64,000 bases of DNA from NCBI GenBank assembly GCA_051362555.1, contig CM120644.1, positions 25,256,534-25,320,533 of the forward strand, read 5' to 3'. Every line of letters starts with the position of its first letter. Positions within the stretch are counted from its first letter, which is position 1. This DNA comes from Lingula anatina. Lineage: Eukaryota; Animalia; Brachiopoda. Both the position numbers and the translations under genes were made by a program. The notes beneath the pieces were generated by a model that saw only the letters and a list, made by a program, of their open reading frames with translations, was not told the origin of the DNA and ran no database searches. This document shows positions 3,358 through 64,000 of the stretch, one piece after another.

Positions 3358-3787
3358 CTGTATCATATCTCTTGTATTTTAGTTGTCTGTGATGTGCCTC
3401 CCACCTTCCAGTCCCTGATCCACTCCTGTACAGTGAGATATGACTGTATCATATATCTTATATTTCAGATGTCTGTGATGTGCCTCCCACCTTCCAGTCC
3501 CTGATCCACTCCTGTACAGTGAGATATGACTGTATCATATATCTTATATTTCAGTTGTCTGTGATGTGCCTCCCACCTTCCAGTCCCTGATCCACTCCTG
3601 TACAGTGAGATATGACTATATCATATATCTTATATTTCAGATGTCTGTGATGTGCCTCCCACCTTCCAGTCCCTGATCCACTCCTGTACAGTGAGATATG
3701 ACTGTATCATATATCTTATATTTCAGATGTCTGTGATGTGCCTACCACCTTCCAGTCCCTGATCCACTCCTGTACAGTGAGATATGA
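3358..3787 (+). repeat. Acceptor-junction tandem array, 5 x 86 bp
   Basis: AGs end at 3382, 3468, 3554, 3640 and 3726. Unit is about 25 nt of intron end plus 61 nt of exon start. Confidence 0.95.
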
Positions 3788-3933
3788 ATGGGGCACTGAT
3801 GACAGCAGGGACTATAACACCTCTTGGACACCGCTGGTCAACACAACTGACCACCCCACTGACCAGTGGACATACCAGTCTGCTTTCAAGCTGAGGTCAC
3901 TTCCATTTGCTGGAAAACATGGCACTTACAATG
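3727..3933 (+). CDS. PKD1-like polycystin exon (DVCDVP...WTYQS...GKHGTYNG)
   Basis: Begins at the last AG of the 86-bp array and ends at |gtaaac. Phase 1-1, with the conserved W.YQS and G....Y.GGGY motifs. Confidence 0.9.
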
Positions 3934-4028
3934 GTAAACTATTTCTCCCTGTGACTACATGAACATGTAGCAAGTGCATAACTAGTGGGCTTGATTTGGT
4001 CTTAAAGTGCAATTTAAGAACACAAATA

Positions 4029-5701: not shown

Positions 5702-6559
5702 TAGTCTTACATGATCTTAAAACATGAGTAGGACCATTTCTAGTTTGACAGCTAATTAAGTTGTTCCCCTTTACACATTCTCCTATTGTGAGCAGAGGTG
5801 TCCTCTACTGTTAGGGGAGGTATCCCCCCATTGTGAGGGGAGGAAACTGCTTGAGCACTGAAGTAGATGTTAGATCATTTTTGATCTTAAAAGCAGATTC
5901 AGTCCAATTTAAAACTACTGCTGTAATGATTAAGATCGTGTAAGATCACTTGTGAACTTAAAATGCACTTTAAGACCAAATCTAGCCCACTAGTGATATA
6001 ATGATGGTTAATTCAAACTGCTACAGGTACTTGTGGCTTGGTTTTTCTAGAATAGCATATTAAATGTTTATTTTAAAGTAATTAATTTGAAAATGTACGT
6101 TCTTTATTCATGTTTGCATTGCTTACTATTACTTATTGTCTTTGAGCCATGGTCAGCTCACAAGGCTTGTCGGCATCCTTCACCATCTCCCTCCATCTTT
6201 TGCTGCTTTATTTGCTTTTACTTATGAAGATATTTACTATATAAATATAGTTTGTGTTTTTATTAGACTGTCTTTCTTGAATCCGTACAATTCAGCAACT
6301 ATGCTGACTTTGTTGACTAGAAAAATGCCAATAAAATAAAAATATAGATTAGAATGTTAAAGCAATTGAAATAAACCAATACACGACCATACATGTATCT
6401 CTTAACTTTGGGGAGGGGGAGGGGGGCGCTTTTTTGGTTCAACTTGATTAAAAATAACATTCTCTGGATAGATACTTTTGTATGTTCGTTGGAGGATGTG
6501 TAAAACTCCTTGATGATGCCAGAGGAAATTTAGAAAAACTCTATGACTACATGTACTGC

Positions 6560-7987
6560 ATATGATATTTTAGGTGGAGGATATGTGAAACTCCTTGGTG
6601 ACACCAGAGATAAAAGCCTGTCTCTAGTATTATATGATATTTTAGGTGGAGGATATGTGAAACTCCTTGGTGACACCAGAGATAAAAGCCTGTCTCTAGT
6701 ATTATATGATATTTTAGGTGGAGGATATGTGAAACTCCTTGGTGACACCAGAGATAAAAGCCTGTCTCTAGTATTATATGATATTTTAGGTGGAGGATAT
6801 GTGAAACTCCTTGGTGACACCAGAGATAAAAGCCTGTCTCTAGTATTATATGATATTTTAGGTGGAGGATATGTGAAACTCCTTGGTGACACCAGAGATA
6901 AAAGCCTGTCTCTAGTATTATATGATATTTTAGGTGGAGGATATGTGAAACTCCTTGGTGACACCAGAGATAAAAGCCTGTCTCTAGTATTATATGATAT
7001 TTTAGGTGGAGGATATGTGAAACTCCTTGGTGACACCAGAGATAAAAGCCTGTCTCTAGTATTATATGATATTTCAGGTGGAGGATATGTGAAACTCCTT
7101 GGTGACACCAGAGATAAAAGCCTGTCTCTAGTATTATATGATATTTCAGGTGGAGGATATGTGAAACTCCTTGGTGACACCAGAGATAAAAGCCTGTCTC
7201 TAGTATTATATGATATTTCAGGTGGAGGATATGTGAAACTCCTTGGTGACACCAGAGATAAAAGCCTGTCTCTAGTATTATATGATATTTCAGGTGGAGG
7301 ATATGTGAAACTCCTTGGTGACACCAGAGATAAAAGCCTGTCTCTAGTATTATATGATATTTCAGGTGGAGGATATGTGAAACTCCTTGGTGACACCAGA
7401 GATAAAAGCCTGTCTCTAGTATTATATGATATTTCAGGTGGAGGATATGTGAAACTCCTTGGTGACACCAGAGATAAAAGCCTGTCTCTAGTATTATATG
7501 ATATTTCAGGTGGAGGATATGTGAAACTCCTTGGTGACACCAGAGATAAAAGCCTGTCTCTAGTATTATATGATATTTTAGGTGGAGGATATGTGAAACT
7601 CCTTGGTGACACCAGAGATAAAAGCCTGTCTCTAGTATTATATGATATTTCAGGTGGAGGATATGTGAAACTCCTTGGTGACACCAGAGATAAAAGCCTG
7701 TCTCTAGTATTATATGATATTTTAGGTGGAGGATATGTGAAACTCCTTGGTGACACCAGAGATAAAAGCCTGTCTCTAGTATTATATGATATTTTAGGTG
7801 GAGGATATGTGAAACTTCTTGGTGACACCAGAGATAAAAGCCTGTCTCTAGTATTATATGATATTTTAGGTGGAGGATATGTGAAACTCCTTGGTGACAC
7901 CAGAGATAAAAGCCTGTCTCTAGTATTATATGATATTTTAGGTGGAGGATATGTGAACCTCCTTGGTGACACCAGAGATAAAAGCCT
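6560..7987 (+). repeat. Acceptor-junction tandem array, 20 x 72 bp
   Basis: AGs end at 6573+72n up to 7941 (12 TAG, 8 CAG). Unit is about 26 nt intron plus 46 nt exon. A degenerate copy lies at about 6491-6525. Confidence 0.97.
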
Positions 7988-8176
7988 TGCAATTCTTGCG
8001 AACCTGCAGGAGTCCAAGTGGATAGACCAGAGGACGCGTGCCGTGTTTCTGGAGTTCACCTTGTACAATCCCCAGGTGAACCTGTTCAGTGTGGGACAGT
8101 TCCTGCTGGAGTTCCACCCCACTGGGGCTGTGTTCCCTTTCTATCAGATCTTTACTTGTAAATTTTACCAATATGG
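7942..8176 (+). CDS. PKD1-like polycystin exon (GGGYV...WIDQRTRAVFLEFTLYNPQVNLF...TGAVFP)
   Basis: Hallmark polycystin motifs; ends gg|gtaagt in phase 2. The start is placed at the last of 20 possible in-frame acceptors. Confidence 0.9.
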
Positions 8177-8610
8177 GTAAGTTATTACTGGGGCTGTGTT
8201 CCCTTTCTATCAGATCTTTACTTGTAAATTTTACCAATATGGGTAAGTTATTACTGGGGCTGTGTTCCCTTTCTATCATATCTTTACTTGTAAATTTTAC
8301 CAATATGGGTAAGTTATTACTGGGGTTGTGTTCCCTTTCTATCAAATCTTTACCTGTAAATTTTACCAATATGGGTAAGTTATTACTGGGGCTGTGTTTC
8401 CTTTCTATCAAATCTTTACTTGTAAATTTTACCAATATGAGTAATTTACCACTGGGGCTGTGTTCCCTTTCTATCAAATCTTTTACTTGTAAATTTTACC
8501 AATATGGGTAAGTTATTACTGGAGCCGTGTTTCCTTTCTATCAAATCTTTACTTGTAAATTTTACCAATATGGGTAAGTTATTACTGGGGCTGTGTTCCC
8601 TTTCTATCAG
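8121..8610 (+). repeat. Donor-junction tandem array, 66-bp unit, left part (7 donors)
   Basis: GT at 8177, 8243, 8309, 8375, 8441, 8508 and 8574. Unit is 56 nt of exon end plus gtaagttatt. Confidence 0.95.
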
Positions 8611-8793
8611 GGCTGGGTTGTATGAAAGCCGTATAGCACTATACGCTGGATAAATCAGCCGTGTAACTTATACGGTTCTTATACGGGTTGCATGAAAGCT
8701 GTATAACTTTATACGGCGGATAAATCTGCTAAATGGTCGGTTAAAGTTATACGTCTCAGGGAGGTCGTTTAAATAGTTGTACAGTGGATAAAA

Positions 8794-10661
8794 ATGGCGT
8801 ACCTGCTGAGGTTCCACAGGAATCCTCAGCAGTATAATCCACCTAGACAGAGGAGAGAGAGGACTTTTCGAAGAGAAGTATTTGACTTTGACGGCTATAC
8901 TGATTCTGAACTGCGTGCAAGGTTTCGTTTTGGCAGAGAAGGCATTAATTTGATAGAGAGAATGTAGGAAGAGGAACTGCAGCCTGCGACTGGCAGGAGC
9001 TGTTCTCTCTCGGTGAGGGAACAAGTTCTCATTGCTTTGCGTTTCTATGCCTGTGGCTCATATCTCCAAGTGGTTGGTGATACAATCGGTGTCGACAAGG
9101 GCACGGTGTGCAGGGTTGTGAGAAAAGTGTCGTTAGCCCTGTGCAGAAGGAAAGACCAATTCATTCAATTCCCAACAGACCCTAGGGAGAAGGCCACGAT
9201 CCGCCGTGGGTTTTTTAGGATTGCCAGATTCCCTGGGGTCATCGGCTGTTTGGACGGAACACACATTAGGATAACGGCGCCCACGTTGAATGAGCCTGCA
9301 TTCGTAAATAGAAAAAACTACCACAGTTTGAATGTCCAGGCTATATGTGACCACAAAGGTATTGATCTTTATTACATATTCAAAACATAAATATTAAGAG
9401 CTCACCGTAAATAACACGACCAACATCTGCAGCGTTCGTGGTTCAACTTCATAAGTCGGCCATTTTTGCGGCCATGACCTTGACTTCTTCAGTGTGACTG
9501 ATCGAATGTGCAAGCAATGTTTATGCAGGTGCAACTAATGCAATCTGCTTAGATAATCATTTTTATGAATAACAAAAACATTGCAGAGCCACATAATTGC
9601 AAATTTAAAAGTTAATTCTCATATTAAAACTTGAGTTATAAATAAGTATTGATATAAATGAAGATTAACATGATGAAATTGAATGCTAACATATTACTTC
9701 AATTTTATTTTCATCACCTTGTCATATTCCATTTCATAAAGGCAAACTTATATTAAACTGTTTTGAAAAAAAATTGAAAAAAGTGAAATTGTTGCACAAA
9801 TGTTATGCTTTCACCATTATTATTGTTTTAATTATTGTCTTCCTCTTCTCCTTAAAAAAAAAACATCCTCTATATTCAGTTCCTTTTTTTTTTTTCTTTT
9901 TATCTCAGGTAGATTTACAAATATCGTTGCCCAGTGGCCTGGTAGTGTCCATGATGCCCATATCTTTTCCACATCAGCGGTTGGGCGTCACCTAAATCAA
10001 AACCAGCAACCAGAGGATGGGGTCCTCCTAGGCGATAGTGGTTATGCCTGCAGGCCATATTTAATGACACCATATCTTCACCCTGTAGGGAGAGCCCAAA
10101 GGAGGTTTAATAGGGCCCACAGGAGCACAAGAAATCTCATAGAGCGAGTGTTTGGCATGTGGAAAAAGAGGCAAGCAACAAAAAAAAAAATATATATATA
10201 TATATTTTAAGCAAAATTGATAAAGAAATGAACAAAAAAAAAAAAAAAATGAAATAAAACAATAACCAAATACTTCTTTATGTCTGAGGGATAATAAACA
10301 ATTATGTGTGCATACACTGTGAATGAACATGTTTTAAATGAAAAAAATTGTATCCTCACAAATTATTTAAGTAAATTAATAATAATTAATAATAAATTAA
10401 TAATAGAAATAATAATATATATTTCATTTTGCTCATTATAGATTTGGTTGCCTAAATATAGGATTCAGGATGGCCCCAGCTAGAGTGAGTACCATAGTTG
10501 GAGCATGCGCCGTCCTCCACAACATTGCAATAAACTTGAAGGAGCCCATTCCTGACAATGTACAAGTGCCTGCAGACAATGGTGACATGGGGGTGCAGTA
10601 TCAAGGACCCCAAGATGGTCGTGCAGTCAGGTATCATCTTGCTTCAACATATTTTGCATGA
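8794..10661 (+). pseudogene. Harbinger (HARBI1-like DDE) transposase, exons 8794-9358, 9909-10170, 10442-10661, with an in-frame TAG at 8965
   Basis: Motifs ALRFYACGS, GCLDGTHI, WPGSVHDA, GDSGY, IERVFG.WKKRF and ACAVLHN. Intron 2 starts GC (ag|gcaagc). Confidence 0.9.
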
Positions 10662-11101: not shown

Positions 11102-11135
<34 letters not shown>

Positions 11136-12340: not shown

Positions 12341-13680
12341 TTTTTACACTCCCTCTGCTACATGATGGCAGTGTTACAGCAGCCCTGGTGCTGGTTGTTG
12401 TTGCTGTTGTTGTTGTTGTTGGAGTTGGGCTGTAAATTGAGCTGTCATCATTTTCATTGTCATCATCATCATCTGCATCATCATTGCCTACTAAATGATA
12501 AATATTTATCAATAAAATTTTGGTATAATAAATTTTACCATTATAACTTTCAAACATAAAAAACAATATTTTCTAATTTAAAAGTGAATGTACATTATTT
12601 TTATATTCACAATTTGTTAAGGCAACAATTTTATCCTTTCTTAGTATTATTTTTTAAATTTTTTTTTACAAAACCCACCAAGAGCTGACAAATCTGTAAT
12701 ATCAATTGTGCTTAGTGGTTCACAGGTACGATACAACGAAAGTTTATTACGGCTGCATCGGTTGACTATATACAGTAATGTACTACCAGTTCGAAGTGGA
12801 TGTATTGATTGTGGCATGCATTTATTGTTTTCGACTATGTTTGATACATTTCAAGGACAAGAGAATATTTCCATTCACATTGGGATTTAACGTTTAGAAT
12901 CTAATCGTTTAGGACCTCAACTACGAGGCTTGCAGTGAAAGAAACAGCGGCTGTGAATCAGTAAGTGACTCTGCCTCGTTATAGAAGTTCAAGGTCAAAG
13001 TATATAAACATTGCAGACGATATGATTTTATGCAATTTTCTGAGCAACCGAATCACATTCAAGACTTATTTTGAAAGTTCAAAACCTATGTGACAATGGA
13101 ACATTCACTTACGGCGAACAAGTTAACATGCAACCGTTTGAGTTTTTTATGTAAAGAATGATGTGCACCGTGTTCATATTGAAACGGCAGTGTGATTCTC
13201 AGTGATTGATTTTAGCAGCATTTACACAAGAAACGAAGAACATTTTCATCATTTGAAAATATTTTTCAAATAAATAAAAATTTATTACTCACCTGTGGTC
13301 TCAAAACCTTCAGCAATACCCTCAAATGAGGGGTCATTGGAATACATGTCTATGATAGACTGTATCTGAGAGTCCACTGGGGGATGGGCTGGCCCGCCGC
13401 CAGTTCCCCCAGCATGTTTAACCAGCCCATGCTGGATCTTCTTGGCATGGGCAACCATTCCCCTCCACTTTTCCTTACATTCATGGGTGCTCCTCTGAGC
13501 TATGCCAAGTGCACTGACATTGTAAGAAATCTCTTCCCAACAAGTTTTCTTTTGTCTGTTGTCCAGACTTGTGGTAAGTTTGGATTTGATGGTATTTTGG
13601 TGCACTTGGCACAGCTCAGTTAGGAGGGAGGTTTCCCTCAAACTCCAATTTGTCTTCCTTGCCCTCTTACCAGAAGACAT
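12341..13680 (-). CDS. Harbinger Myb/SANT-like DNA-binding protein (exons 13680-13293 and about 12490-12341; degenerate coiled-coil exon near 11950-11800)
   Basis: RKTNWSLRETSLL...WEEIS...RSTHECKEKW...GTGGGP is the MSANTD/NAIF1-type signature; donor is |gtgagt. Confidence 0.85.
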
Positions 13681-14431
13681 TTTCACAGGACTGTACTTTT
13701 GTTTTAGCAACAGTGCCTGATGGGTAACCAAATATGGACATAGACCCAGTTGTTCATAGCAACTTCCTCAAAGTGAGGTTGTTCTTACCAATTATCCACT
13801 ATATAGTGATTTTATCCACCGTTTAGCTATCCGCCTGTTTATACGCTCTTTATGCAATGCATATTTATACACCTGTAACGTACCGATCTTAATAATTAAG
13901 CCATATCAGGATTCACCGACAAAAGAAATAATTGGAGAGTATCATTATCAAAAGCCACCGACGTTGGGCCGCAGCAGTGGTGAGGATTAGCTTGTTAAGG
14001 GGCCGTTTTGTCTCAGATGTCGGGGAGATGATCGTAACCTTACCAATCCTCAATACAGGTCGATCGTTCGACAGACATACCGTCGCCGAGGGTTCGGCCA
14101 GGGTTGCGACATTGAACCGACATCAAGCATATTAACGGATAAGGACCTTTTAACGAGCTTCCTCAACACTCAGTATATAAGGTCTAGAAAACTCTCGGTT
14201 GGATAGAAGGTAGAAGACGCAGATCAGTAGAACCTCTACTTGTTAACGACAACGACTGTAGGCCGATGTCCAGGCCGCCTCTAATCCTGTTCAATAAATT
14301 ATACAGTTAAACTTCTTCGTTGAGTTCATCTCTGACTGAGGCGTCCACCAGCAAGCCTCACGAATCAGTACGAGTACCTGTACGACATCACATTTGAGTC
14401 TACAAATTGGCGAGCTCCCAGATATTCAGGG

Positions 14432-15526
14432 ATGGACCCGGAGATAGTAAAGCAACTCACCAGTGGCGTGTTGCTAATGGCCAAGACAAGCCTGCAGACA
14501 GCCCAGGAGGACGGCCACTGGCGGAATTTGATGCAGGAGAGGTGGCGGTCAGAGGACGATCGCCACACAGCACAGGTACAACTATTGGCGGAGAACGGCC
14601 AACGATTAAAGAGACAGGAGACGCAGAGTAGGATAGACCTCCTCTGTCGACCCATATCGACGTGCGATGGCACAGTTCCAGAAGATACGAGAGAGTGGAT
14701 TGACCAGGTGGAGAGGACAATTCCCCGGTCGACAGACATACCGGAGGCCACTATTCGCATCGCGCTGCAGACCACAAGCGGGGCGTTGGCCTCAGAAATA
14801 GATCACCACCTACAACAGAGGCCCGAATATTATGGTGCGGATTGGGCAACCCTCCGCAACCACATCCGCCGGGTTTTTCTTTCGGCGGATGAGACAACAT
14901 CTTTGCGGGCGGAATTGGAAAAAATAAAACAATCGCCTTACGAAAATACAGCAGCATATAGCCGAAGAGTAAGAGAAGCCGCCAAGAAGGCGTACCCCCT
15001 CCCTCGTAGCACAGACGCCGAATTTAACCTTGTAAAGATTTACGCTCGCGGCCTGTCAGAGGTCCGACTGGCGCGAGACTTGTTACGTCGAGGGAGGCCT
15101 AAAACTCTACAAGACGCCATCAAATTTGTTGATAACGAGGAGGTTGGAGACCTCATGTTTAAAACTGTGTACGGAGACCGCCTGACAACACCGGCCAGGG
15201 TGGAAGAACCCATGGAGATTGGTGCAACACAAAAAGAAGAGACGCCAGCCTGGGTAGAAGAGCTGACATCATTAACACGTTCCATGGCAACCCTACTACA
15301 GCAGAACCAACAGCGATCTACACATGTACCCCAACAGCGACAGACACAAGCTAAGCCCAGACCACGGTTCAACAGCCCTAGAGGTGAAAGAGGTTGGACT
15401 GAAAATGGTGAAGTAATTTGCTTTCATTGTAACAAAATCGGACATTATAAAGCAGACTGTTATCAGCTTAAAGGTAGTCAGAGAAGACAGGGGACAGGTA
15501 GGCCTAGAAGTAACCATTTAAACTAA
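14432..15526 (+). CDS. gag: Gypsy Gag with CCHC zinc knuckle
   Basis: 364-aa ORF with EEPMEIG and CFHCNKIGHYKADC, immediately after the PBS. Confidence 0.92.
   Translation: MDPEIVKQLTSGVLLMAKTSLQTAQEDGHWRNLMQERWRSEDDRHTAQVQLLAENGQRLKRQETQSRIDLLCRPISTCDGTVPEDTREWIDQVERTIPRSTDIPEATIRIALQTTSGALASEIDHHLQQRPEYYGADWATLRNHIRRVFLSADETTSLRAELEKIKQSPYENTAAYSRRVREAAKKAYPLPRSTDAEFNLVKIYARGLSEVRLARDLLRRGRPKTLQDAIKFVDNEEVGDLMFKTVYGDRLTTPARVEEPMEIGATQKEETPAWVEELTSLTRSMATLLQQNQQRSTHVPQQRQTQAKPRPRFNSPRGERGWTENGEVICFHCNKIGHYKADCYQLKGSQRRQGTGRPRSNHLN
15517..15523 (+). promoter_or_regulatory. -1 ribosomal frameshift slippery site T TTA AAC
   Basis: X XXY YYZ heptamer in the gag frame directly before the gag stop; the -1 frame opens into the protease. 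Confidence 0.8.
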
Positions 15527-16085
15527 TAGCGGCAGCAGGACGCGCTGGAGACCGAGTAGGAATAGAGGTTAGTTTACACGGTATTAAATGTGTAGCTTTA
15601 GTAGATACCGGCGCCAGCACCTCCTTGCTGCACTATTCCGTTTATCAGAAGTTATGCGAAAAAATAGCGAGACCAAGATTAGTAAAATTTTCTCAACCCA
15701 TTGTTAGTGTTACAGGGCAGAGATTAGACGTGGTAGGCAGAGCCCAAATTAGAATAGACAACGCCACCACAGTAGATATGCTACTGGTTAGAAATATAGA
15801 TCACGACATGATTCTGGGCAACGATACCCTCCAAACTCACAGGGGTGTCATTAATTACAACACCAATACATTGTGTTGGTGCCGAAAGGAATGGCCATTA
15901 GTGGAATACACGCGTAACGCCTCGGCGTCTACGTTGTGCACTTCACTATTGAAAACTACACCTGTGGGTGACGAGGTAATAGACGAGGTGTTAAGGGAGT
16001 ACAATGACATATTTAGCGTGAAAGGGGACCCCCACGGGCTGGCAAAGGTGGAACCAATGACAATAGATACAGGGAATAACCCTCC
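15517..16085 (+). pseudogene. pol: Truncated Gypsy pol (aspartic protease only), in the -1 frame
   Basis: The -1 frame reads ...CVALVDTGASTSLL...MILGND. RT, RNase H and integrase are absent. Confidence 0.88.
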
Positions 16086-16361
16086 ATCAAAAGCCACCGA
16101 CGTTGGGCCGCGGCAGTGGTGAGGATTAGCTCGTTAAGGGGCCGTTTTGTCTCAGATGTCGGGGAGATGATCGTAACCTTACCAATCCTCAATACAGGTC
16201 GATCGTTCGACAGACATACCGTCGCCGAGGGTTCGGCCAGGGTTGCGACATTGAACCGACATCAAGCATATTATCGGATAAGGACTTTTTAACGAGCTTC
16301 CTCAACACTCAGTATATAAGGTCTAGAAAACTCTCGGTTGGATAGAAGGTAGAAGACGCAG

Positions 16362-17048
16362 GGGCCGGTTTCACAAAGCAGTAGTTAGTTAGCGATCGGT
16401 AGTTAGCCTCTCGCTAGTTATAATGCCGTTTCACGAAGCAGTCGCTAGTTCTCTCGCTCTTTATTGTGTCGTTGTTACCATGGATATTTAGCGACTGGTC
16501 AGACCAGTCGCTAACTCTAGAGTTTCATCGTACGCATGCGTAATGAATGAAATAGAAAGGTTGCTTAGTTACCGTTGTCTGTCGTTTGTCTTTGTATCCA
16601 ATATGGCGACGACCTTTTTTGCTATCCGTACCGCCAGACGGCAACGTAGACTACGACGTTTTCATGAAAGGCAGAATCTATTAGAATATACACGCGATGA
16701 TGCAATTTACGAGAGGTTGCGCCTAGCTGTGACAAAAAGAGCGGCAAAAGGGTGGTGGAGATCCTTTACGACGACCTCAAAGCAGACGTTCTTATGCATT
16801 TCCAGCCGCCGGAAATTGGAGAGTTAGTGCTTTCGCGACACTTTTACACAAGAGTTCCACTTCCGGTAGACTGTTTCGAGACTACGGTGAGTAACAAGAG
16901 AACTAACGACCGAACTTTACGACTGAACTTAGCGATGAGTTAACTACTGCTTCGTGAAACACCCCTCGAAAATCGCTAAGTTTGCTCGTTAGCGAGGTAG
17001 TTCAGTAGTTAGTTGTTCTAACTAACTACTGCTTTGTGAAACCGGCCC
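16362..17048 (+). mobile_element. Non-autonomous Harbinger-derived element inserted in the 3' LTR
   Basis: TIR gggccggtttcacaaagcagtagttagttag and CAG TSD; the empty site is visible in the 5' LTR. Carries a transposase N-terminal remnant (TRDDAIYERLRL). Confidence 0.92.
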
Positions 17049-17323
17049 CAGATCAGTAGAACCTCTACTTGTTAACGACAACGACTGTAGGCCGATGTCC
17101 AGGCCGCCTCTAATCCTGTTCAATAAATTATACAGTTAAACTTCTTCGTTGAGTTCATCTCTGACTGAGGCGTCCACCAGCAAGCCTCACGAATCAGTAC
17201 GAGTACCTGTACGACATCACATTTGAGTCTACACACCGTTTAGCTATACACCGTATAGGGCATTTACACACTGTATAGAGTTATCCGGCGTATAGTGCTA
17301 TATGGCTTTCATACAACCCAGCC

Positions 17324-17812
17324 CAGATCTTTACTTGTAAATTTTACCAATATGGGTAAGTTACCACTGGGGCTGTGTTCCCTTTCTATCAGATCTCTTT
17401 ACTTGTAAATTTTACGAATATGAGTAAGTTATTACTGGAGCCGTGTTTCCTTTCTATCAAATCTTTACTTGTAAATTTTACCAACATGGGTATGTTAATA
17501 CTGGAGCCTTGTTTCCTTTTTATCAAATCTTTACTTGTAAATTTTACCAATATGGGTAAGTTATTACTGGAGCTGTGTTCCCTCTCTATTAAATCTTTAC
17601 TTGTAAATTTTACCAATATGGGTAAGTTATTACTGAGGCTGTGTTTCCTTTCAATCAAATTTTTACTAGTAAATTTTACCAATATGGGTAAGTTATTACT
17701 GAGGCTGTGTTTCCTTTCAATCAAATTTTTACTAGTAAATTTTACCAATATGGGTAAGTTATTACTGGGGCTGTGTTTCCTTTCTATTAAATCTTTACAG
17801 GTAAATTTTACC
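17324..17812 (+). repeat. Donor-junction 66-bp array, right part (7 more donors), separated by the Harbinger insertion
   Basis: Resumes in register after the CAG target-site duplication (TSD); GT from 17356 to 17754. Copies are more diverged. Confidence 0.95.
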
Positions 17813-19131
17813 ATTGTGGTTAGGTTATAGTCCATGAGCCAAATTGAAAAAAGGCCTTATTTAAGGATTTGGCTGCACCCCCCGTCAAACAAAGGTTTTA
17901 TGATTGATTCTTGTAGTTTAGAACCTGAATTTTTCATTTCTGCTTGTTTCCGGCTTGAAAAAGTGTCCGTTTGTACCGGAAACAGGCCAAATCCAAGATG
18001 GCCGCCAGTAAATTCATGTGTCAACTGTAAATACAAAAATTGATTTTAAAGTTACTTAACAACTTAATATTATCAAAATTTGCACTGATCACAAGTACTT
18101 TGGCCTTCTTTGATTTTTCAGGCACTTTACATTTTTCAAAATGGCGACTGAATCCAAGATGGCGGCCATTTTCCTTACTTTTTGTGAAAAAATACAAATA
18201 CCTAAATTTGAAATTTTTTTTATTAACCAAAAATTAGGAATATTTTACATGTTTTGGTGTATTTGAATAAGTTGAAGTCTATATTTTTAATTTTTACCAG
18301 TTAATTTATCACAAAATTGTACATTTGAACACAGATGGCTCTAATCCAAGATGGCCACCACATAAAATGGGCTTTTTGTTTTGATACGTCAAAAAGAATT
18401 TCTCAGTATAAAACATCTCAGACTACTTAATGGAGGATTTATTGCACAGGTCATGGTATGAAATGTATGACTGAATAATTTAAATTGTTTTGAGATTTTG
18501 TTCAGGGTATAAAAATCCAAAATGGCCGCCAATTTCTGGATTCAAAACATACATTATTTTGATTTGCATGTTAAAAAACATTAAATTGAATAATTAGCAA
18601 ATTAAAAATATTTATTTTTTGATAAATTTATCTGTATTGCAATCTCATTTTGCTTCTTGGCCACTTTATTCTGTCAAAAAGTGGTTAATTTTTCTTCATT
18701 TATCATGATTCCAAGTTTGCCATTGATAAAAATGAACTGCACGCGACCCGTATGGACAATACCACATGTTATGAGCCTTACGTAAAAGGCTATTTCTGAG
18801 CTTTATTGTTCAAGTAATGGAATGGAATATATAACTGAATGATTCAAAATGTTTTTAGGCTTGTAGTTTAGGGTTGAAAAGTCCAAAATGGCCGTCAATT
18901 TCTGGATTCAAAACAAATGACATTTTGATTTGCATGTTGAAAAGCATCAAATTGAATGATGGGCAAATGATTAAAGACTATATTTTGATAAACTGCAGTG
19001 TCCTCTTACTGTTTAGAATCTAATTTTTCCAAAAAGTAATTATCTAAGCTCCAATCATCAAAAATATCCAAGATGGCCACCAACAAAAATGAATTTTAGG
19101 TAAACATGGATGAAAACACACTGTTGAGTCG

Positions 19132-38249: not shown

Positions 38250-38355
38250 ATGTGGACCAGTGTCTCACCTAACAAGAAGAAAAATCTTTCTTTGTGGAGC
38301 TGTATCACTGATCACACCAAAGTAGTTCTGATCTTGCTCCTTGCTGTACTCATAG
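38250..38355 (+). CDS. Probable first coding exon (signal peptide ...KVVLILLLAVLI) of the FCGBP-like gene
   Basis: ATG at 38250, a hydrophobic stretch and a phase-1 |gtagga donor; joins in frame to 43622 (GVSG-IPDSAGTDF). Confidence 0.6.
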
Positions 38356-40387: not shown

Positions 40388-40676
40388 TAACAAATGTTTT
40401 TGTTATGTGTTTTGTTATATGCTATTATGACTAGCAACCCAAACTTGCCGCCATGTTCAATGACAGAAAGACACAATAAAATGAGGAATTATGCATATGC
40501 AGAGGCCATTGCGACTAGTTTGTATGGCCCCAAATAATAGCCTCAAAACTAATGGTGATTTCGCCATTAGCGCATGGTCGGGATTTGCAAGGCTTTCGAG
40601 ATATGGGATAGCGAGGAATTGCCATGCTTGCACCCGCACGCCATAAGCGAAGCTTTCGAGATAGGGGGCCCTGTTT

Positions 40677-42280
40677 CAGTCTGCGACGTTAAGCACTAGC
40701 CCGAGGCAATTGCCCACCTAAAGTGGCAACGGGCTAGTAAAAAAGTTGAAATTTTATAAAGCACTAGCCTGAACAGGCTAGTTGTAATTTTGAACCTATT
40801 TTAACACTCAGTAAGATTTCAAAAATATAAGTCGCCAGTCTTCTTTGTCTCTGCCTCTAATTTGACGTTTCTAGAATCTAGAAGATAGTAGTATGATATG
40901 CCTGTCAGTTGAAAAAAACTCACACCTAGCTCTAACTACTGAATATTGATTAGTTGCTATAAATAACTTCACTGTAGTTATTTATAGCAGCAGTCTGTCA
41001 GACAGTCTGATCAGCATGTCGGCATCTTTTTATTTGACCAGTTTGTTGTCATGACTACAAATTGCTGTCAATCAAGAAACTGGATCAGACCGGAATTCCT
41101 TAGTACTAGCAACAGGTTTTGTCAAAACAACACTGTCTCCGTAAGCAAGTGTTATCTCATAGAACATTTTGGTTAGGACCACTTAGCAGACTGAGGGGTG
41201 GAGTATTCTATCTCCTTTTTTGTTTATATTTTTTATGTATAATTTTAATATCCATGAGTAAATACATTTTCCTTTGCTTATTGCCTTTTAAAAACAATAA
41301 ATACCCTATGAACTATTCTTGACAATGTGGGATAGTTCGGTTTATGCCATGGCTACCCCTCCACACTTTGTCCTGGTAAAGTCCTTGAAAAGTTGTTTTT
41401 ACAAATATATAACCAAAAGAATTGTAACCAAAATTTTAATTACCCTTACAGCACTTATGTATTTTAAATTAGAAGTGGCATTATATACCAATGTAATTGG
41501 AAATAAATTGTCAGAAAATAGCCATTGTCAATAAAAAGAATAGGAATTAAAAAAAAAAGATTTTGATTGAATATAAAAAATGAAAAAAAAAAAGATATTA
41601 TAAAAATATGAAAAGGGTAACTATATTCAGTATTACAAATTTAGAAGAAAGAATTTTTTCAATATTCAAAGAATTAAATATATTTTTAATTAATTTTACC
41701 ACCCCATCAACTAGAAATTAACCTGATTGACATTGTTATTCACTTGCTCTGCTTCTGTAATAAGGTTTATAAGAAAGTACACTTAGTACAGTATGGTACC
41801 ACAACTCTTTACAACATCTGCTTAAACCTTTTAAATGATTATTTAAAGGGATAATAACTCTTCGTATGATATCTGTATTTCACAATAAAAACATAGTGAA
41901 CAACTCATAGAAATATAATATATATTCTGTTTTACCATGAAAACGGCAGTTATAGCTATTATCCTGATATCTGAGCTTGTCTTCAATCATGTGACCTCCA
42001 ATGATGGCTGTACTCTGTTATAATCTCTTAAGAGATTTTAACAAAAAACCAAACTTTTTAGAAAAAAACCAGGGACTAACTTTAAATGTAAAAATAGATT
42101 CATTAACCATTGGTAAGTATGGGAAAATTGTTGTTTACTCCAGGAAAATTCATTTTTTGGCCAAAACGAAGAGTTATTATCCCTTTAAATTGGGCTAGTG
42201 TTTTTTGGTCCGGGCTAGTAAAGTTTGAGAGTCTGCTAGCCCGAAGGACTAGTAGTCTAAAATGTTTTTGGCACCGACTG
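40677..42280. mobile_element. Putative non-autonomous hAT-like element
   Basis: CAGTC...GACTG termini flanked by a ctgttt direct repeat, with subterminal ctagccc motifs. Internal 41845-42190 resembles 38619-38960. Confidence 0.5.
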
Positions 42281-43621
42281 CTGTTTGTTTACAAAGGACA
42301 CAACAGATTGGTTTAAAGTTTGGTTAAAAGGATCTATGGAATATACCAAGACATTTTCTCTTACTTGTATCAAAGGATGAAGAATAAGTTCAAATGCATT
42401 TTAACATATGAAAACTGGAATGTAGTCCAGGTAACTCTTATGGCCTAACAGTACCTGTTAAAAGCCCCATGCATGGTACTTTTACCTACTATATAAGGTC
42501 CAGCCAGAAAACATATATAAGACCATCTCTTTTGAAAAAATCTGGAAATTTGATACTCCTCCAGTATTGCTCCTACAATGTTTGATATTTACACAGAATT
42601 TAACAACTGTGCATGAAAGTAGGGTAGACGAAATCTCCGGTTGATTTATATAGGCCCTATCATTTATTATTTATTTTTTTATTAACTATTTTTAATTTTT
42701 TCATTTTGTTTGTTTTCAGCTTTGATATCATTAACTTTTGCCACCGTTCACATTTTATGATGTTTCTGCCTTCTGTAATATTTCTCTTCAGACTTTCTTT
42801 GTCCTCGCAATCTTTGAGATGCATTGCTGAAATGCCAATAATTTGGTTTGTCATTAGTAGTCATTTCAATATGCTTTACAGGTAAAAATACCAAAGATGA
42901 TCAAATTATGTCTTCAAGGTAACTAAAATAAGAGGCATCTTAACCAACATTATTGTCTTGTTAGGCTTCATTCACATGCAATGTCTATTTTCTAAATTTT
43001 ATGATTTGCCTCATACAAAAGAACGCAGCAGTGCATGGAGATCAATATAATGACTTAACATAGTTGCCAAAGAGGGTGTCTGTTTCAAGCACATGAATCA
43101 ATTTAATGTGTCCCCCATTTTATTCCCATGCTTACTAAGTTTCAAACCTGCATGTTCTCATAATATGGTTTATGATGAAGGCATCATGGTCTGACATTGT
43201 TAGGGTGACAGTTAACCATGTATTAAACGGTTTCCGCAAGTACCAAACATGGATAGGGGCGAAAACTGACTTTGACAAATTTTAAAGGACTTGTCATCTG
43301 TGAAGTTAGCCACTGAATTTACTCTAAAGCCAAATATGCAAAGAACATAGTGCAAACATGTTGGAACAGCACCTGTATTTTAGGAGAATTGTTTATGAAC
43401 ATTTTAACCAGTGAAAACAGGAAAAGGGAGGGGGGGGGGGTTGACCTAGCTTAGAAAGCGACCAACTTCCATAAGCATAACACTGACTCTCAGTTAATGT
43501 TTTTTGTTTTGGTCACATTTAGTGAATTTATATATCCTCGACTACTCCAATAAACTGATATTTATATTTTTTGCCATGATGTGTTTTGATTTTGAATCTC
43601 ACTACTCCTCTCTTGTTTTAG

Positions 43622-44988
43622 GTGTGTCAGGCATACCAGACAGCGCTGGGACTGATTTCATGGTGATGTTCACTGAAAACAGAGTGAACGATCAACCCTT
43701 CCCATATAATACATCCAATATGACATTATATATAACCCCAATCGATGGAACCAAGGCTGTAACATTCAGCGTTTATTACATACTTCAAAATGATTTGATA
43801 AACATCACACGGACGATACCGGCAGGACCCAATACAGCCGCGTCTGTGTTGCTACCCTCAGACTTAGAGGTGAGGACTAGTGGAGTGATATCGAACTGCG
43901 GGATCCGTGTAGTGACTTCCGAAAAGATTTGTCTTTCTGCTATCAACAGGAAAGGCCATTCTTCCGACGGTTTTACAGCAATTCCAGTTTCAAAACTAGG
44001 CAAGCGGCACTATTCTGTCTCTTACTCCCGACCCCGTGTCTCAACACAGATGGGTTTGGTCGCTGTGGAGTATGACACGACCGTGACCATCACTGTTCAA
44101 AGATATGCCAAACTGACTTTTAATAGCATCTCATATTCAGGTGATCAGACGTTCAGTTTTACACTGAACGCCTTTCAAACCGTCTTGTTTGATGATGAGG
44201 TTTCGATGTCTGATTTGTCTGGAACGCTCATCGTTTCCTCCAAGCCAATTGGCGTTTTTAGTGGAAATAAAAGGACTAATGTTGGCTACGGAAGATTAAC
44301 GGAAGACCATTTGGTAGAGCAACTGCCTTCTGTAGAATACTGGGGGACTGAATTCATCGCAGTATCAACGCCCCTCCGCACCAGTGGAGATATCATTAAA
44401 CTTGTCCTCAGTGAACCCAAAACAATGGTAATGTGGTACGAACATTCAACTACCTCATCCATAACTTTACCTTTAGCTGGTAATTCAAGAGAATTTTATT
44501 TGAGTTCTCGTATAGTTAAGGATATAATGATCATTTCAAACAAACCCATAATGGTTGCCCAGATTATTCTTAGCAACAATGATAGATACCCTGAGCCGGG
44601 GGATACTTCCCTTACCATTCTCCCTCCCCTTTCTCAATACACCAACGCCTACAACTACGTCGTCCCTCGAATGACAGACCCGACAGATTTAAGCGAACCC
44701 AACAAGGGACCTTTCTTTTACTTTTTGACTATCATCATCGAGGACCAATACAAAGATGGTCTGCGGTTGAATGGTAGTGTTATTCCCGGACTTTTGTGGC
44801 ATTCTATACCTATCGTCCAAGGGAAGCCCAGAATGGTGGCCGTGTCCTTTGAAATTCAACAGAACAACATGAGATACACACTAACGAATGTCAACCCGAC
44901 CGCGATGTTCAGTGTCCTTCTGTACGGGGCTGGGGACAGGGAAAGTTACAATTACCCTCTAGGATTTAACCTCAATGTGCTGAACCCG
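43622..44988 (+). CDS. FCGBP-like protein, IgGFc-binding domain 1 (single large exon)
   Basis: Motifs DSAGTDFMVMFTEN, SSDGFTAIP, DLSGTLIVSSKPIGVFSGN, DHLVEQLP...WGTEF and ESYNYPLG. Splice sites ttttag| and |gtgagt. Confidence 0.92.
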
Positions 44989-45099
44989 GTGAGTAAATGA
45001 CACTGGATTTTTGTCCATGACATGTTTTAGTTGAGTTTGTTTTAAAAAAATGTCATTTTTTTCTAAATTCCAATAAAGCTGCTATTCAAACTTTTAATC

Positions 45100-56452: not shown

Positions 56453-56500
56453 TATTCAACTAATAAACCCCAGCCTAACCAATTTAAAAATTACCTTTAG

Positions 56501-57733
56501 GTGAATGTGATAACGCCACGCTGGAGCAGCCCAAGTGTAAATGAGCAATTCACGTTGGCCACTGGTCAGTATCGTACCGTGAGTATTCCACAAGAGCTCC
56601 GCATGCAGCAGTCAACTCTCTCCACCAAGGCCATCTTGGTCCAGTCAAGTGGGGAGGTAGTTGTCCAGGGTGTGAATTCTGAAGAACACTCTACGGGCAT
56701 GTTTCTTGCTCTTCCAATTGATGCTGTTGGCAGTGAGTATTATGCAGTGTGTTACAGTCCTGCTTTCCTTCATTGCCAGTTTGGTATTGCTGCAATACAA
56801 GATGGAACAGAGGTCTCGATATCTTTACCTTCTCCACTGCCTTCTGGTCAAATTGTGCAGGTGACTTTTCAGGGCACAACATACTATAGTGGACAAACAA
56901 TCCGCCTGACCCTCAGTGCCTATGACACTGTTCAAATACAGGCTGCTCACGACCTGACTGGCTCTCATGTCATAACCAACAAACCTGTGAGCTTCTTCAG
57001 TGGGAACAGGCATACAAACATAGACCGAGGGTTAGGTGGACAAACAAAAGATCACACTGTAGAAATGCTCCCACCAGTATCTGCCTGGGGTAAAGAGTTC
57101 ATCACTTTCCAAATTCCAGACGGGACAGTATCTAATCCTGGGAACAATTTCAGAGCTGTGGTTCCCAGATTCAGTCAAACACCACAACTCGACCTGACAG
57201 TGGGCTCCAACCACATATACCCAGCAGTGCCCAATGGGTTTTCTTATGCCCAGTTCCTGGTTGGCCAAGGAAGCCAAAACACTTATGCCTATCTGTCATC
57301 AAACACTCCAATAATGTTAGCTGAATTCATTGTCAGTATGATAGGTACCAGTGAGGTAGCCGGTCCTTCTATGATTTATCTGCCACCTATTTCATTGTAC
57401 AGGAATGAATACACATTCACTGCCTTGGAAAGATCTCTCAGCACAAACAAGGTTTTTGTGAACACAGTTATTATTGTCAGTCCTTTGTCAGGTCGTGGTG
57501 ACATCACATTGGATGGGAATGCCTTACCAGCAATTACCTGGACCAATGTCGATGCAGGGGGTGTCATGTACAGTGCCGGCTTCTTTACTGTCAGCGCTGG
57601 CTTTCACAAACTGAGTCATCCCAAAGCGAACCATTATTTTGGTGCAGTGCTGTATGGAATTGTTTTGAATGATACAGTAGCCTCAGAATCCTATGCTACT
57701 GCTATTGGCATGAGGCTGTCCAGGATTAATGAA
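56501..57733 (+). CDS. FCGBP-like exon, IgGFc-binding domain 2
   Basis: Motifs STGMFLALP, DLTGSHVITNKPVSFFSGN and DHTVEMLPPVSAWGKEF. Splice sites ctttag| and |gtaagt; 411 codons. Confidence 0.93.
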
Positions 57734-58243: not shown

Positions 58244-58285
58244 ATGAAGATGGTGATGGAAGACAGAATGAGGATTGTGCAAAAG
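58244..58285 (+). CDS. 42-nt exon (DEDGDGRQNEDCAK)
   Basis: ttttctttgtcag| acceptor and |gtatga donor; phase 1-1; second copy of the acidic motif. Confidence 0.8.
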
Positions 58286-58676: not shown

Positions 58677-58966
58677 ATATTTTGCTGTATATATGAAGTA
58701 GATGGCCAGTGGTCTCATATTTTGCTGTATATATGAAGTAGATGGCCAGTGGTCTCATATTTTGCTGTATATATGAAGTGGATGGCCAGTGGTCTCAGTG
58801 GTCTCATATTTTGCTGTATATATGAAGTGGATGGCCAGTGGTCTCATATTTTGCTGTATATATGAAGTGGATGACCAGTGGTCTCATATTTTGCTGTATA
58901 TATGAAGTAGATGGCCAGTGGTCTCATATTTTGCTATATATATGAAGTGGATGGCCAGTGGTCTCA
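58677..58966 (+). repeat. Acceptor-junction tandem array, 7 x 40 bp
   Basis: AAG ends at 58698, 58738, 58778, 58827, 58867, 58907 and 58947. Unit is 21 nt intron plus 19 nt exon. Confidence 0.93.
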
Positions 58967-59130
58967 GTGGTTAAACTGGGGCACCTGCTCAGTAAGCTGT
59001 GGGGGTGGCAGTAGGAGTAGGACCAGGTCCTGTAGTGATCCAGTACCAGCATTTGGTGGCAGCCCGTGCCCAGGATCACCTCCAGACACACAGACTGATA
59101 CGGGGTCCTGCAATACTAATGGCTGTCCAG
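58948..59130 (+). CDS. TSP1 (thrombospondin type 1) exon
   Basis: [29 protein letters not shown]...CP. Symmetric phase 1-1, AAG acceptor and |gtaata donor. Confidence 0.9.
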
Positions 59131-59321
59131 GTAATATATATACTCAAAGCCCAAGAGATAATTATATGCTGAAAAAAATGGATATTAACTTAATTCAATA
59201 AAGTAAAAAAAATATATATATTATTAATTGTGTATAATAAAGGAACTCTTGTAGTACTCACCATTAGCTGATTAAACTGATATATAGTAATAATTGGCAT
59301 GCCTTCTTGCACACTTCCAAG

Positions 59322-59456
59322 TGAATGGGACCTGGATAGTGTGGCAAGCATGGAGTGCTTGCATTGTAAACTGTAGATCAGGTCGTGCGGTCGCAGTTGT
59401 CCTCCACCACAAAATGGTGGTAGTTTTTGTTCAGGCAGCCCCACAGAGAATGAGAA
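59322..59456 (+). pseudogene. Degenerate TSP1 pseudo-exon, frameshifted and cut by a gcacac-rich repeat (about 59457-59870)
   Basis: VNGTWIVWQAWSACIVNC, then RSCPPPQNGGSFCSG in another frame; no donor. Confidence 0.7.
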
Positions 59457-61034
59457 CCCGTAGCAAAATTTTAAACTTCCCGCACACTGTTTCTGTGTAT
59501 GCGCAGCATATTCACAGTAAGGGTTTCTGCGCATGTGCGGCACACCTCATTTGCATGGTAAAATACACACCTACCGCACACTCCTTGCACATCTCCTGCA
59601 CACTTCCTGCACACCCCCAACGCCACAACCAGCACAGTTCTTGCATACCTCTTGCATACTTCTTGCACACCTCCTGCGTACTTCTTGCACACCTCCTGCG
59701 CACTTCTTGCATGCCTACTGCATACTTTTTGCACACCTTCTGCGCATATCTTGCACACCTCCTGCAAACTTCTTGCACACCTTCTGCATACTATTTGCAC
59801 ACCTCTTGTGCAGTTAATGCACACCTCCTGCACAGTTTTGGCATACCTTCTTGCACACTTCCTGCACACTAATTAAAATATTTTATAACATGATTTAAAT
59901 TTTACGTGCTTGTTTTTCAGTCCCTTTATATTAATTCTACAAAGAATTAATATAAAGAATTACACTAAAGACATGTGCCAACAACTTAAAATTTTACTAA
60001 GAATGTTAGAAAAGTTAATATTATTCTTTAGAATCTGTACTGTCATTGAACAGAAATATTGTTAAATCTGTTTATCAACAACAAACAAGAAATTACAGTC
60101 ATATATTGTGCTTTATCAATCAAATTAAAAAATCGAACAAAATTAGCAAAATCCAAGCCATGTCCATATTTCTCTTCTTTACCTCTTTCTACCACATTTC
60201 TCTTCTTTACTCATCCTGTCCTGCTCCGTCCATCTAAAAAAATAGTAAACCGTAAAGTCCTACAAATTCACCACACTGCGCACAATGCTTAACATCCAAA
60301 TCTTAAACATCCATGTGGAGGACAAAAAACATCAATATACACATTACTGTTTGATAAGTCCTAAAATCAAGTTCAAGTGGTTATTGTTCATATAAAGAAG
60401 AGGTAGAAAGGAATGCATAAAAAATGTCTTGGATACTAAAAAACAAACAAAAACAAAGTGCTAAAACTGCTTTGAAGAATACTTCATGTACATCCCTTAC
60501 ATATTTATGTGATGTTGAAAGCTTATGGTTTATGGCTGCATTCACTTATATCCAACAAAATTTAAAGTATTGTTAAATGATATAAATATAATCAACTTGC
60601 AGTTAGTGATGTTCTCTTTTAAAACTTACTCTGCACAGCTCTTTCAACTAGATAATCCTTCACAAAAGAAACTGTTGCTGACAGTTCTTGTGGGCTGAAA
60701 AAACTCTCTAGTAACTTCTTTATCGCAAAGGTACTTGTATACTTTGTGTGAGTTTTGATGAGCCACCAACTATAGATATTCACAGCAAAGTCTGTCCCTT
60801 CTATTTATAAGCATGCAGTAGGAATGGGTTTCAGATCTGAAGGATTTCAAATATACATCAACATGTTTGAAATATGAGTATGTATATTGATTCGGCATAT
60901 TAGAGACACTAACATGAGTCAATAGTGATGATATAAGTTTGTTTTGCTAATTTGTATATTAATTCAGTGCACCATAAAATAGTTTTAGTACTCTCAGTTC
61001 ATTTGAAATTAATTATCTATGTATGTGATTCTAG

Positions 61035-61205
61035 TTGATGGTGGCTATTCAGACTGGAGTCCTTGGAGCACGTGTGCAGTCACATGTGGTGGTGGTCAGC
61101 AGACCAGGCAGAGGACATGTACCAATCCAGCTCCTCAGTTTGGAGGTGCTAGTTGCTCTGGACCCACATCAGAATCTCACACTTGTAACAGTCAGCAATG
61201 TCCAG
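61035..61205 (+). CDS. TSP1 exon
   Basis: VDGGYSDWSPWSTCAVTCGGGQQTRQRTCTNPAPQFGG...CP. Splice sites ttctag| and |gtaaca; phase 1-1. Confidence 0.93.
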
Positions 61206-64000
61206 GTAACATGTAACAGTCAGCAATGTCCAGGTAACATGTAACACTCAGCAATGTCCAGGTAACATGTAACAGTGAGCAATGTCCAGGTAACATGTAA
61301 CAGTCAGCAATGTCCAGGTAACATGTAACAGTCAGCAATGTCCAGGTAACATGTAACAGTCAGCAATGTCCAGGTAACATGTAACAGTCAGCAATGTCCA
61401 GGTAACATGTAATATTTAGCAATGTCCAGGTAACATGTAACAGTCAGCAATGTCCAGGTAACATGTAACAGTCAGCAATGTCCAGGTAACATGTAATATT
61501 TAGCAATGTCCAGGTAACATGTAACAGTCGGCAATGTCCAGGTAACATGTAATATTTATCAATGTCCAGGTAACATGTAACAGTGAGCAATGTCCAGGTA
61601 ACATGTAACAGTCAGCAGTGTCCAGGTAACATGTAACATTCAGCAATGTCCAGGTAACATGTAACAGTCAGCAATGTCCAGGTAACATGTAACATTTTAG
61701 CAATATCCAGGTAACGTAATATTTATCAATGTCCAGGTAACATGTAACAGTCAGCAATGTCCAGGTAACATATAACAGTGAGCAATGTCCAGGTAACATG
61801 TAACAGTGAGCAATGTCCAGGTAACATGTAACAGTCAGCAATGTCCAGGTAACATGTAACAGTCAGCAATGTCCAGGTAACATGTAACATGTAACAGTCA
61901 GCAATGTCCAGGTAATATGTAACAGTCAGCAATGTCCAGGTAACATGTAACAGTCAGCAATGTCCAGGTAACATGTAACAGTCAGCATGTAACAGTCAGC
62001 AATGTCCAGGTAACATATAACAGTGAGCAATGTCCAGGTAACATGTAACATTTTAGCAATATCCAGGTAACGTAATATTTATCAATGTCCAGGTAACATG
62101 TAACAGTCAGCAATGTCCAGGTAACATATAACAGTGAGCAATGTCCAGGTAACATGTAACAGTGAGCAATGTCCAGGTAACATGTAACAGTCAGCAATGT
62201 CCAGGTAACATGTAACAGTCAGCAATGTCCAGGTAACATGTAACATGTAACAGTCAGCAATGTCCAGGTAATATGTAACAGTCAGCAATGTCCAGGTAAC
62301 ATGTAACAGTCAGCAATGTCCAGGTAACATGTAACAGTCAGCATGTAACAGTCAGCAATGTCCAGGTAACATATAACAGTGAGCAATGTCCAGGTAACAT
62401 GTAACAGTGAGCAATGTCCAGGTAACATGTAACAGTCAGCAATGTCCAGGTAACATGTAATATTTAGCAATGTCCAGGTAACATGTAACAGTCAGCAGTG
62501 TCCAGGTAACATGTAATATTTAGCAATGTCCAGGTAACATGTAACATGTAACATTCAGCAATGTCCAGGTAACATGTAACATTTTAGCAATGTCCAGGTA
62601 ACATGCAATATTTAGCAATGTCCAGGTAACATGTAACATTTTAGCAATGTCCAGGTATCATGTAATATCTATCAATGTCCAGGTAACATGTAACAGTGAG
62701 CAATGTCCAGGTAACATGTAACAGTGAGCAATGTCCAGGTAACTTGTAACAGTGAGCAATGTCCAGGTAACATGTAATAGTCAGCAATGTCCAGGTAACT
62801 TGTAACAGTCAGTAATGTCCAGGTAACATGTAACATTTTAGCAATGTCCAGGTAACATGTAACATTCAGCAATGTCCAGGTAACATGTACCAGATCAGCA
62901 ATGTCCAGGTAACATGTAACAGTGAGCAATGTCCAGGTAACATGTAACAGTGAGCAATGTCCAGGTAATATGTAACATTCAGCAATGTCCGGGTAACATG
63001 TACCAGTCAGGAATGTCCAGGTAACATATAACAGTCAGCAATATCCAGGTAACATGTAACATTTTAGCAATGTCCAGGTAACATGTAATATTTATCAATG
63101 TCCAGGTAACATGTAACAGTGAGCAATGTCCAGGTAACATGTAACATGTAACAGTCAGCAATGTCCAGGTAACATGTAATATTTATCAATGTCCAGGTAA
63201 CATGTAACAGTGAGCAATGTCCAGGTAACATGTAACAGTGAGCAATGTCCAGGTAACATGTAACAGTCAGCAATGTCCAGGTAACATGTAACATTTTAGC
63301 AATGTCCAGATAACATGTAATATTTATCAATGTCCAGGTAACATGTAACAGTGAGCAATGTCCAGGTAACATGTAACAGTGAGCAATGTCCAGGTAACAT
63401 GTAACATTCAGCAATGTCCAGGTAACATGTACCAGATCAGCAATGTCCAGGTAACATGTAACAGTGAGCAATGTCCAGGTAACATGTAACAGTGAGCAAT
63501 GTCCAGGTAACATGTACCAGTCAGGAATGTCCAGGTAACATGTAACATTTTAGCAATGTCCAGGTAACATGTAATATTTATCAATGTCCAGGTAACATGT
63601 AACAGTCAGCAATGTCCAGGTAACATGTAACAGTGAGAAATGTCCAGGTAACATGTACCAGTCAGCAATGTCCAGGTAACATGTAATATTTAGCAATGTC
63701 CAGGTAACATGTAATATTTAGCAATGTCCAGGTAACATGTAACAGTCAGCAATGTCCAGGTAACATGTAACAGTGAGCAATGTCCAGGTAACATGTAACA
63801 GTCAGCAATGTCCAGGTAACATGTAACAGTGAGAAATGTCCAGGTAACATGTACCAGTCAGCAATGTCCAGGTAACATGTAATATTTAGCAATGTCCAGG
63901 TAACATGTAATATTTAGCAATGTCCAGGTAACATGTAACAGTCAGCAATGTCCAGGTAACATGTAATATTTAGCAATGTCCAGGTAACATGTAACAGTCA
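61184..64000 (+). repeat. Donor-junction tandem array, 28-bp unit, about 100 copies, running off the window
   Basis: Unit tgtaacagtcagcaatgtccag|gtaaca is the last 22 nt of the exon plus 6 nt of intron. Confidence 0.97.

Follow-up and report, generated by a model that had tools for sequence, protein, structure and literature searches.

Five exon-intron boundaries within 64 kb of the genome of the brachiopod Lingula anatina are built into mirage minisatellites, that is, head-to-tail units that span a real exon-intron boundary. The stretch analysed, hereafter the window, comprises 64,000 nucleotides (nt) of GenBank assembly GCA_051362555.1 (contig CM120644.1, positions 25,256,534 to 25,320,533 of the forward strand) and holds the 3' part of a polycystin gene followed by one or two further genes. 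In the five arrays the intronic part of the unit is short, 21-26 nt at acceptors and 6-10 nt at donors. Breakpoints placed uniformly above a selection floor are not enough to account for lengths so near that floor, a conclusion that is supported by the comparison with chance given below. The best reading of the unit geometry, to which we assign a probability of about one half, is that tandem duplications are seeded preferentially in exons and are then filtered by a selection floor.

Arrays at working splice sites

The arrays were found by Tandem Repeats Finder (TRF), and their copies were then set in register one by one; lengths are given as intronic and exonic nt per unit, and all arrays and host genes lie on the plus strand. 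The window contains seven arrays with exon-like units (A1 to A7), five of which (A1, A2, A3, A6 and A7) are at supported splice sites. Three of the five are acceptor arrays. A1 (3358-3787) consists of five copies of an 86-nt unit with 25 intronic and 61 exonic nt, the last copy being the working acceptor of the polycystin exon 3727-3933. A2 (6560-7987) has 20 copies of a 72-nt unit (26 intronic and 46 exonic nt), and exon 7942-8176 takes its working acceptor from the last of these. A6 (58677-58966) has seven copies of a 40-nt unit (21-22 intronic and 18-19 exonic nt), the last of which opens the TSP1 exon 58948-59130. The other two are donor arrays. A3 has a 66-nt unit with 56-58 exonic and 8-10 intronic nt, and its first copy is the working donor (between 8176 and 8177); an 8.7-kb insertion that ends in inverted repeats divides its 15 copies into a proximal half of seven copies (8121-8609) and a distal half of eight, the last one degenerate (17327-17828). 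A7 starts at 61184 with a 28-nt unit of 22 exonic and at least 6 intronic nt, and a spliced contig uses the donor of its first copy (between 61205 and 61206). This array runs off the end of the window at 64000, so that the 6 intronic nt and the 98 copies counted are both lower bounds. The guanine-cytosine (GC) content is 0.38-0.61 in exonic parts versus 0.18-0.33 in intronic parts, and the exonic fraction of the unit ranges from 0.45 to 0.85.

A preliminary description of the window had reported intronic parts of about 25, 26, 32 and 21 nt for acceptor units and of 10 and 6 nt for donor units. All of these values are present in the sequence, with 8-10 nt for A3, but three of them need qualification. 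The 32 nt belong to A5, an array with no working exon; the 6 nt of A7 are a lower bound; and, of the 26 intronic nt of A2, only 14 agree in register with the native flank on the left. The remaining 12 nt of the A2 intronic part have no significant match in the flank (shuffle p 0.30; p 0.48-0.49), and a derivation of these 12 nt from an older flank was rejected on the same values (p 0.30-0.49). At 6490-6524 the exonic part of A2 has a further copy, older and degenerate (30 of 35 nt identical). That exonic parts vary widely was confirmed, with 18-61 nt per unit across the verified arrays. The copies of A6 (58699-58950) differ among themselves, with AAG-TGG or AAG-TAG (a tandem acceptor), and two of its units are 49 nt long through an internal 9-nt exonic repeat.

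The splice sites of A1, A2 and A3 are confirmed by the Lingula orthologue P0001, whose alignment stays in frame across the three arrays by way of the last copy at the acceptors and the first copy at the donor. The protein is continued only by these terminal copies; the other copies, or decoys, lie in the intron. For the downstream genes, contigs of run X1, which behaves as spliced, gave three GT..AG joints, and one contig exits at 61205, the first donor of A7. Such contigs lose rare forms and, being built from short reads, break at arrays, and the raw-read depth on these exons is below about 2 (RNA runs X12 and X15). The acceptor of A6 is predicted from the reading frame and the Pfam TSP_1 match, no joint being displayed there.

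A private change, found in none of the decoys, marks the working copy in each of A1, A2 and A6. In A1 (at 3744) and A2 (at 7958) this is an amino-acid change, and all decoys keep the residue of the orthologue. The terminal working copies thus escape homogenisation, which does not reach them quickly in these three arrays.

Intronic length and junction placement compared with chance

Are the short intronic parts and the placement of the arrays at junctions more than chance? With regard to placement, 5 of the 14 independent long-period arrays lie at junctions versus 0.7 expected, an enrichment of about 7-fold (P 0.0008; P 0.004 when 40 junctions are assumed). Such an enrichment cannot come from purifying selection. 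With regard to length, the closeness of the five arrays to the minimum has a P of 0.06-0.10 if breakpoints are uniform at each period and there is no floor. When a floor of 12-20 nt at acceptors and of 6 nt at donors is imposed, P becomes 0.0002-0.014, the floors being chosen post hoc. The earlier argument that a selection minimum is not enough is borne out by these values. It had been added that the intronic part is never longer than the splice signal. This is true of all five verified arrays in the window and does not extend to published units, in which donors have 29, about 30 and 33 intronic nt and an acceptor has 52-56 nt. The four published mirages alone fit uniform breakpoints (P 0.41-0.52); pooled with the five arrays of the window, the nine give P 0.004-0.025 with floors and 0.135 without.

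A scan of the exon edges of the window, aimed at units that might be missed because their exonic part is short, started from 30 candidates; two of these were dropped as not at AG or GT, and one acceptor among those kept was placed 1 nt off. An echo was found at 5 of the remaining 28 edges, and the other 23 were at the background score (8 or less); no overlooked unit with a long intronic and a short exonic part was present at any of the 28. Acceptor units have longer intronic parts than donor units (three versus two arrays), with a permutation P, obtained by arithmetic, of 1/10, or of 1/15 if A5 is included. The preliminary description had attributed this asymmetry to the geometry of the spliceosome. 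The acceptor parts are indeed longer, but the asymmetry is predicted by any floor model because the floor itself differs between acceptor and donor, and spliceosome geometry is not singled out.

Breakpoints of the units

In-register microhomology at the unit junction is 0 nt in A1, 0 nt in A2, 0-2 nt in A3 and 1 nt in A6. The several-nt in-register microhomology that is the signature of slippage is absent from these four arrays. Short microhomologies had been proposed at three junctions, and none of them stood when the copies were in register. The gtaaca of A7 recurs 21 nt apart inside the 28-nt unit and is not the junction; the tca of A6 is out of register, with 1 nt matching in register; and the actg of A3 is the start of the exonic part, which the distal flank does not match.

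Branch points were considered by motif only, as they are unmapped. No native branch-like adenosine was found at the unit start in A1 or A6, and the boundary of A2 is ambiguous. The best native branch-like motifs of A1 (at -34) and A2 (at -28) fall outside the unit. The base just 5' of the unit is C in A1 and, in A6, an A without the nTnAy context. In both A1 and A6 the new unit junction makes a branch-like motif from exonic bases, with the A at -26 and -22, respectively. Motifs made in this way are what selection among survivors would leave.

Comparison with known arrays

Mirage minisatellites are known from amphioxus, where they occur in Adh3, the globins BflGb6 and BflGb9, troponin C and PGBD5 (PMC3087553, PMC3902484). 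The comparisons in this section draw on parts of the cited papers. In both amphioxus and Lingula a boundary between exon and intron, be it a donor or an acceptor, is repeated in tandem and one terminal copy is functional; the unit lengths overlap, those of amphioxus Adh3 being 10-72 bp (PMC3087553, PMC3902484). The amphioxus arrays are reported not to disturb splicing (PMC3087553, PMC3902484), and their origin is stated as unclear (PMC3087553); the parts of both papers covered here give no table of intronic against exonic length. Lingula differs in having five arrays in 64 kb with up to at least 98 copies. Its intronic parts (6-26 nt) are also shorter than those of the three amphioxus units that can be counted (29, about 30 and 52-56 nt), namely two donor units of PGBD5 with 29 and about 28-32 nt (PMC3902484 supplement 1) and the acceptor unit of BflGb6 with 52-56 nt (PMC3087553 supplement 4), all counted by eye. 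Taken by copy number, the published low-copy mirages (2-9 copies) have 29-56 intronic nt and the Lingula arrays (5-98 copies) 6-26.

In human, variable numbers of tandem repeats (VNTRs) that span exon-intron boundaries have been described in F7 IVS7 (intervening sequence 7), CBS IVS13, 6-16, LMNB2 and PDGF (PMC1557585). They share with the Lingula donor arrays a first monomer that spans the donor, and the pseudo-donors downstream are mostly silent in the human cases; in F7, only the first of the identical donors is used (PMC1557585). The F7 unit has the reverse geometry, however, with 4 exonic and 33 intronic nt, the cases listed are all donor arrays, and CBS and 6-16 also use two pseudo-sites (PMC1557585). 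Tandem genomic duplications that give rise to introns (PMC3265369, PMC4974935) are likewise intragenic and involve splice signals, as far as the parts cited here go, but the Lingula copies sit within existing introns and no new intron is shown. At the level of titles and abstract openings, the literature searched contained no table of intronic versus exonic unit length and no brachiopod case, the founding Adh3 paper lying outside this coverage. The Lingula arrays belong to the known mirage class, to which they add a dense occurrence in a brachiopod and short intronic parts.

Exon-seeded duplication as a proposed origin, and the alternatives

What process would place units at junctions and leave their intronic parts so close to the minimum? 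In the explanation that we favour, tandem duplications would arise or amplify preferentially in exonic, GC-richer DNA. Duplications wholly inside exons would mostly be purged, and those that cross an exon edge with enough splice signal would leave one working end copy and could then grow as neutral minisatellites. The floor set by selection would be about 6 nt at the donor and about 20 nt at the acceptor, where the pyrimidine-rich tract and the AG have to be kept. An exonic bias of this kind would yield both the junction enrichment and the pile-up of lengths just above the floor. In addition, units with an intronic part so long that it could act as a mini-intron may be lost to a soft ceiling. 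The decoys are probably ignored by the proximity or scanning rules of splice-site choice, by analogy with the F7 donors.

Exon-seeded duplication gains from an array in which the spliceosome has no part. At the end of exon 7 of lancelet PGBD5, a 56-nt coding array ends exactly at the TAG stop (PMC3902484 supplement 1; one case, read by eye), and it is likewise made of a coding part plus a minimal boundary signal. The part of PMC3902484 covered here does not discuss this array. The 29-56 intronic nt of the four published mirages and the lack of any unit with a long intronic and a short exonic part in the window also speak for it. In toy calculations, weighting breakpoints by exp(4 x exonic fraction) raised P from 0.0004-0.006 to 0.04-0.21, and a bias towards the exon centre with a standard deviation of 30 nt gave P 0.13; both are fits and not tests.

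Several points weigh against this explanation. The exon bias is postulated, and to absorb the signal it must be strong, weighted by at least about exp(4 x exonic fraction). All five verified arrays differ from the textbook lengths of the signals by no more than a few nt, and a floor combined with a hard 40-nt ceiling, on its own, still gives P 0.02. Moreover, there are only five arrays, and they come from two loci. Wholly exonic in-frame arrays, some of which the model predicts to survive, were not found by TRF in the window. The junction-made branch-like motifs, two out of three, are weak, as 13% of intronic positions have an nTnAy no more than 1 nt away.

An origin coupled to splicing, in which the intronic breakpoint is set by the position of U1 or U2/U2AF on the nascent RNA, appears unlikely. 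It could operate, for example, through RNA-templated repair, through a lariat intermediate that is copied only as far as the branch, or through breaks where a splice-site R-loop ends. The match of textbook splice footprints to intronic parts of 21-26 nt at acceptors and 6-10 nt at donors, the departure from uniform breakpoints with a floor, the roughly 7-fold junction enrichment and the microhomology of 0-2 nt, which argues against plain slippage, are all in its favour. However, the lariat-copy model needs a native branch adenosine just 5' of the unit, and, judged by motif, there is none in either of the two testable arrays (A1 and A6). No splicing intermediate is known to end at +6 to +10 of a donor. 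The four published cases fit uniform breakpoints, and the stop codon of PGBD5 shows the same geometry. Equally doubtful is the broader idea that the footprints of U1 and U2/U2AF are recorded in DNA by a mutational process coupled to splicing, in which tandem duplications would begin with one breakpoint where the bound splicing factor ends, and that splice sites would in this way be birth hot spots of minisatellites across many invertebrate phyla.

We also regard it as improbable that the pattern is an effect of small sample size, with near-uniform breakpoints limited by a floor and perhaps a soft ceiling, the tight fit being due to luck and to the post hoc floor. The P values obtained without a floor, both for the window and with the published cases added, and the asymmetry P of 1/10 would agree with this, as would the fact that three of the six lengths first reported are uncertain. 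Yet P is at most 0.014 with any plausible floor and remains 0.02 with the 40-nt ceiling, the scan of the window uncovered no hidden units with long intronic parts, and the junction enrichment is left unexplained. Least probable of all is erosion, by which units would begin with longer intronic parts and be trimmed to the footprint by deletion bias and turnover, so that only old, high-copy arrays look trimmed. The longer intronic parts of the published low-copy arrays, against 6-26 nt in the 5- to 98-copy Lingula arrays, are in line with erosion, and the older degenerate copy of A2 has a longer spacer, but the homology of that spacer is not significant. The private changes described above point to slow homogenisation of the working copies in A1, A2 and A6, and deletions at the junction would shorten the exonic part too.

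The brachiopod arrays widen the known range of the mirage class. Unit geometry is a cheap means of asking, across a whole genome, whether the places where duplications originate are biased by splicing or by exon chromatin. The acceptor arrays, in which 5-20 near-identical 3' splice sites follow one another and only the last can give the protein, offer a natural setting in which to tell exon definition from scanning. If splicing factors did set the breakpoints, there would be a direct link from RNA processing to DNA mutation; the window does not show one.

Arrays A4 and A5, host genes and the insertion in A3

The two remaining arrays are not at verified splice sites. A4 (30370-31256) contains part of exon 7942-8176 and 12 donor units and sits about 1.4 kb beyond the polycystin stop codon, 22 kb from its source. 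As it is 95% identical to 8014-8609, A4 is judged from the sequence not to be independent of A3. It shows the dispersal of an array together with its exon. A5 (39460-40386) is acceptor-like, with 10 full copies of an 89-nt unit (32 and 57 nt). No exon continues past its last copy, and none of the 12-mers of its exon-like part recurs elsewhere in the window; A5 is for these reasons not verified as a junction. In the region 38150-45050, contigs of runs X1 and X2 left the array uncovered and the alignments were dominated by repeats. High-copy repeats adjoin A5 on both sides. A reading on the minus strand was dropped by eye, neither flank being exon-like. Possibly A5 is an orphan like A4, with its source elsewhere in the genome.

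The first host gene is the 3' part of a PKD1L2-like polycystin at 2009-28969, identified by Pfam matches (PF20519 and PF08016), protein search and orthologue alignment, with exons near 2009, 2368, 2959, 3727, 7942 and 28120. The nearest named protein is the Lingula anatina PKD1-like 2 (PKD1L2), with 94% identity across the last exon. The second locus, one gene or two, extends from 38235 to 61205 according to Pfam and spliced contigs. By Pfam it carries IgGFc-binding domain exons at 43622-44988 and 56501-57733 and TSP1 domain exons at 58948-59130 and 61035-61205. Protein searches with the IgGFc exon found no close orthologue, only relatives that are 28-33% identical, and A5 was consequently not placed. 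A frameshifted, degenerate TSP1 pseudo-exon lies at 59310-59470, within the intron skipped by the joint from 59130 to 61035.

The 8.7-kb element that splits A3 extends from 8598-8660 to 17275-17326, its terminal inverted repeats being about 50 nt long and 92% alike. It contains a spliced transposase-like frame (about 8811-10660) and an open reading frame (ORF) on the minus strand (13290-13690), and by its look we take it to be a candidate PIF/Harbinger element. Nested within it is a piece of a long terminal repeat (LTR) retrotransposon (13947-17233) with a gag ORF that has a weak PF03732 match and with two near-identical LTR copies; another element with inverted repeats, at about 16362-17048, interrupts one of these copies.

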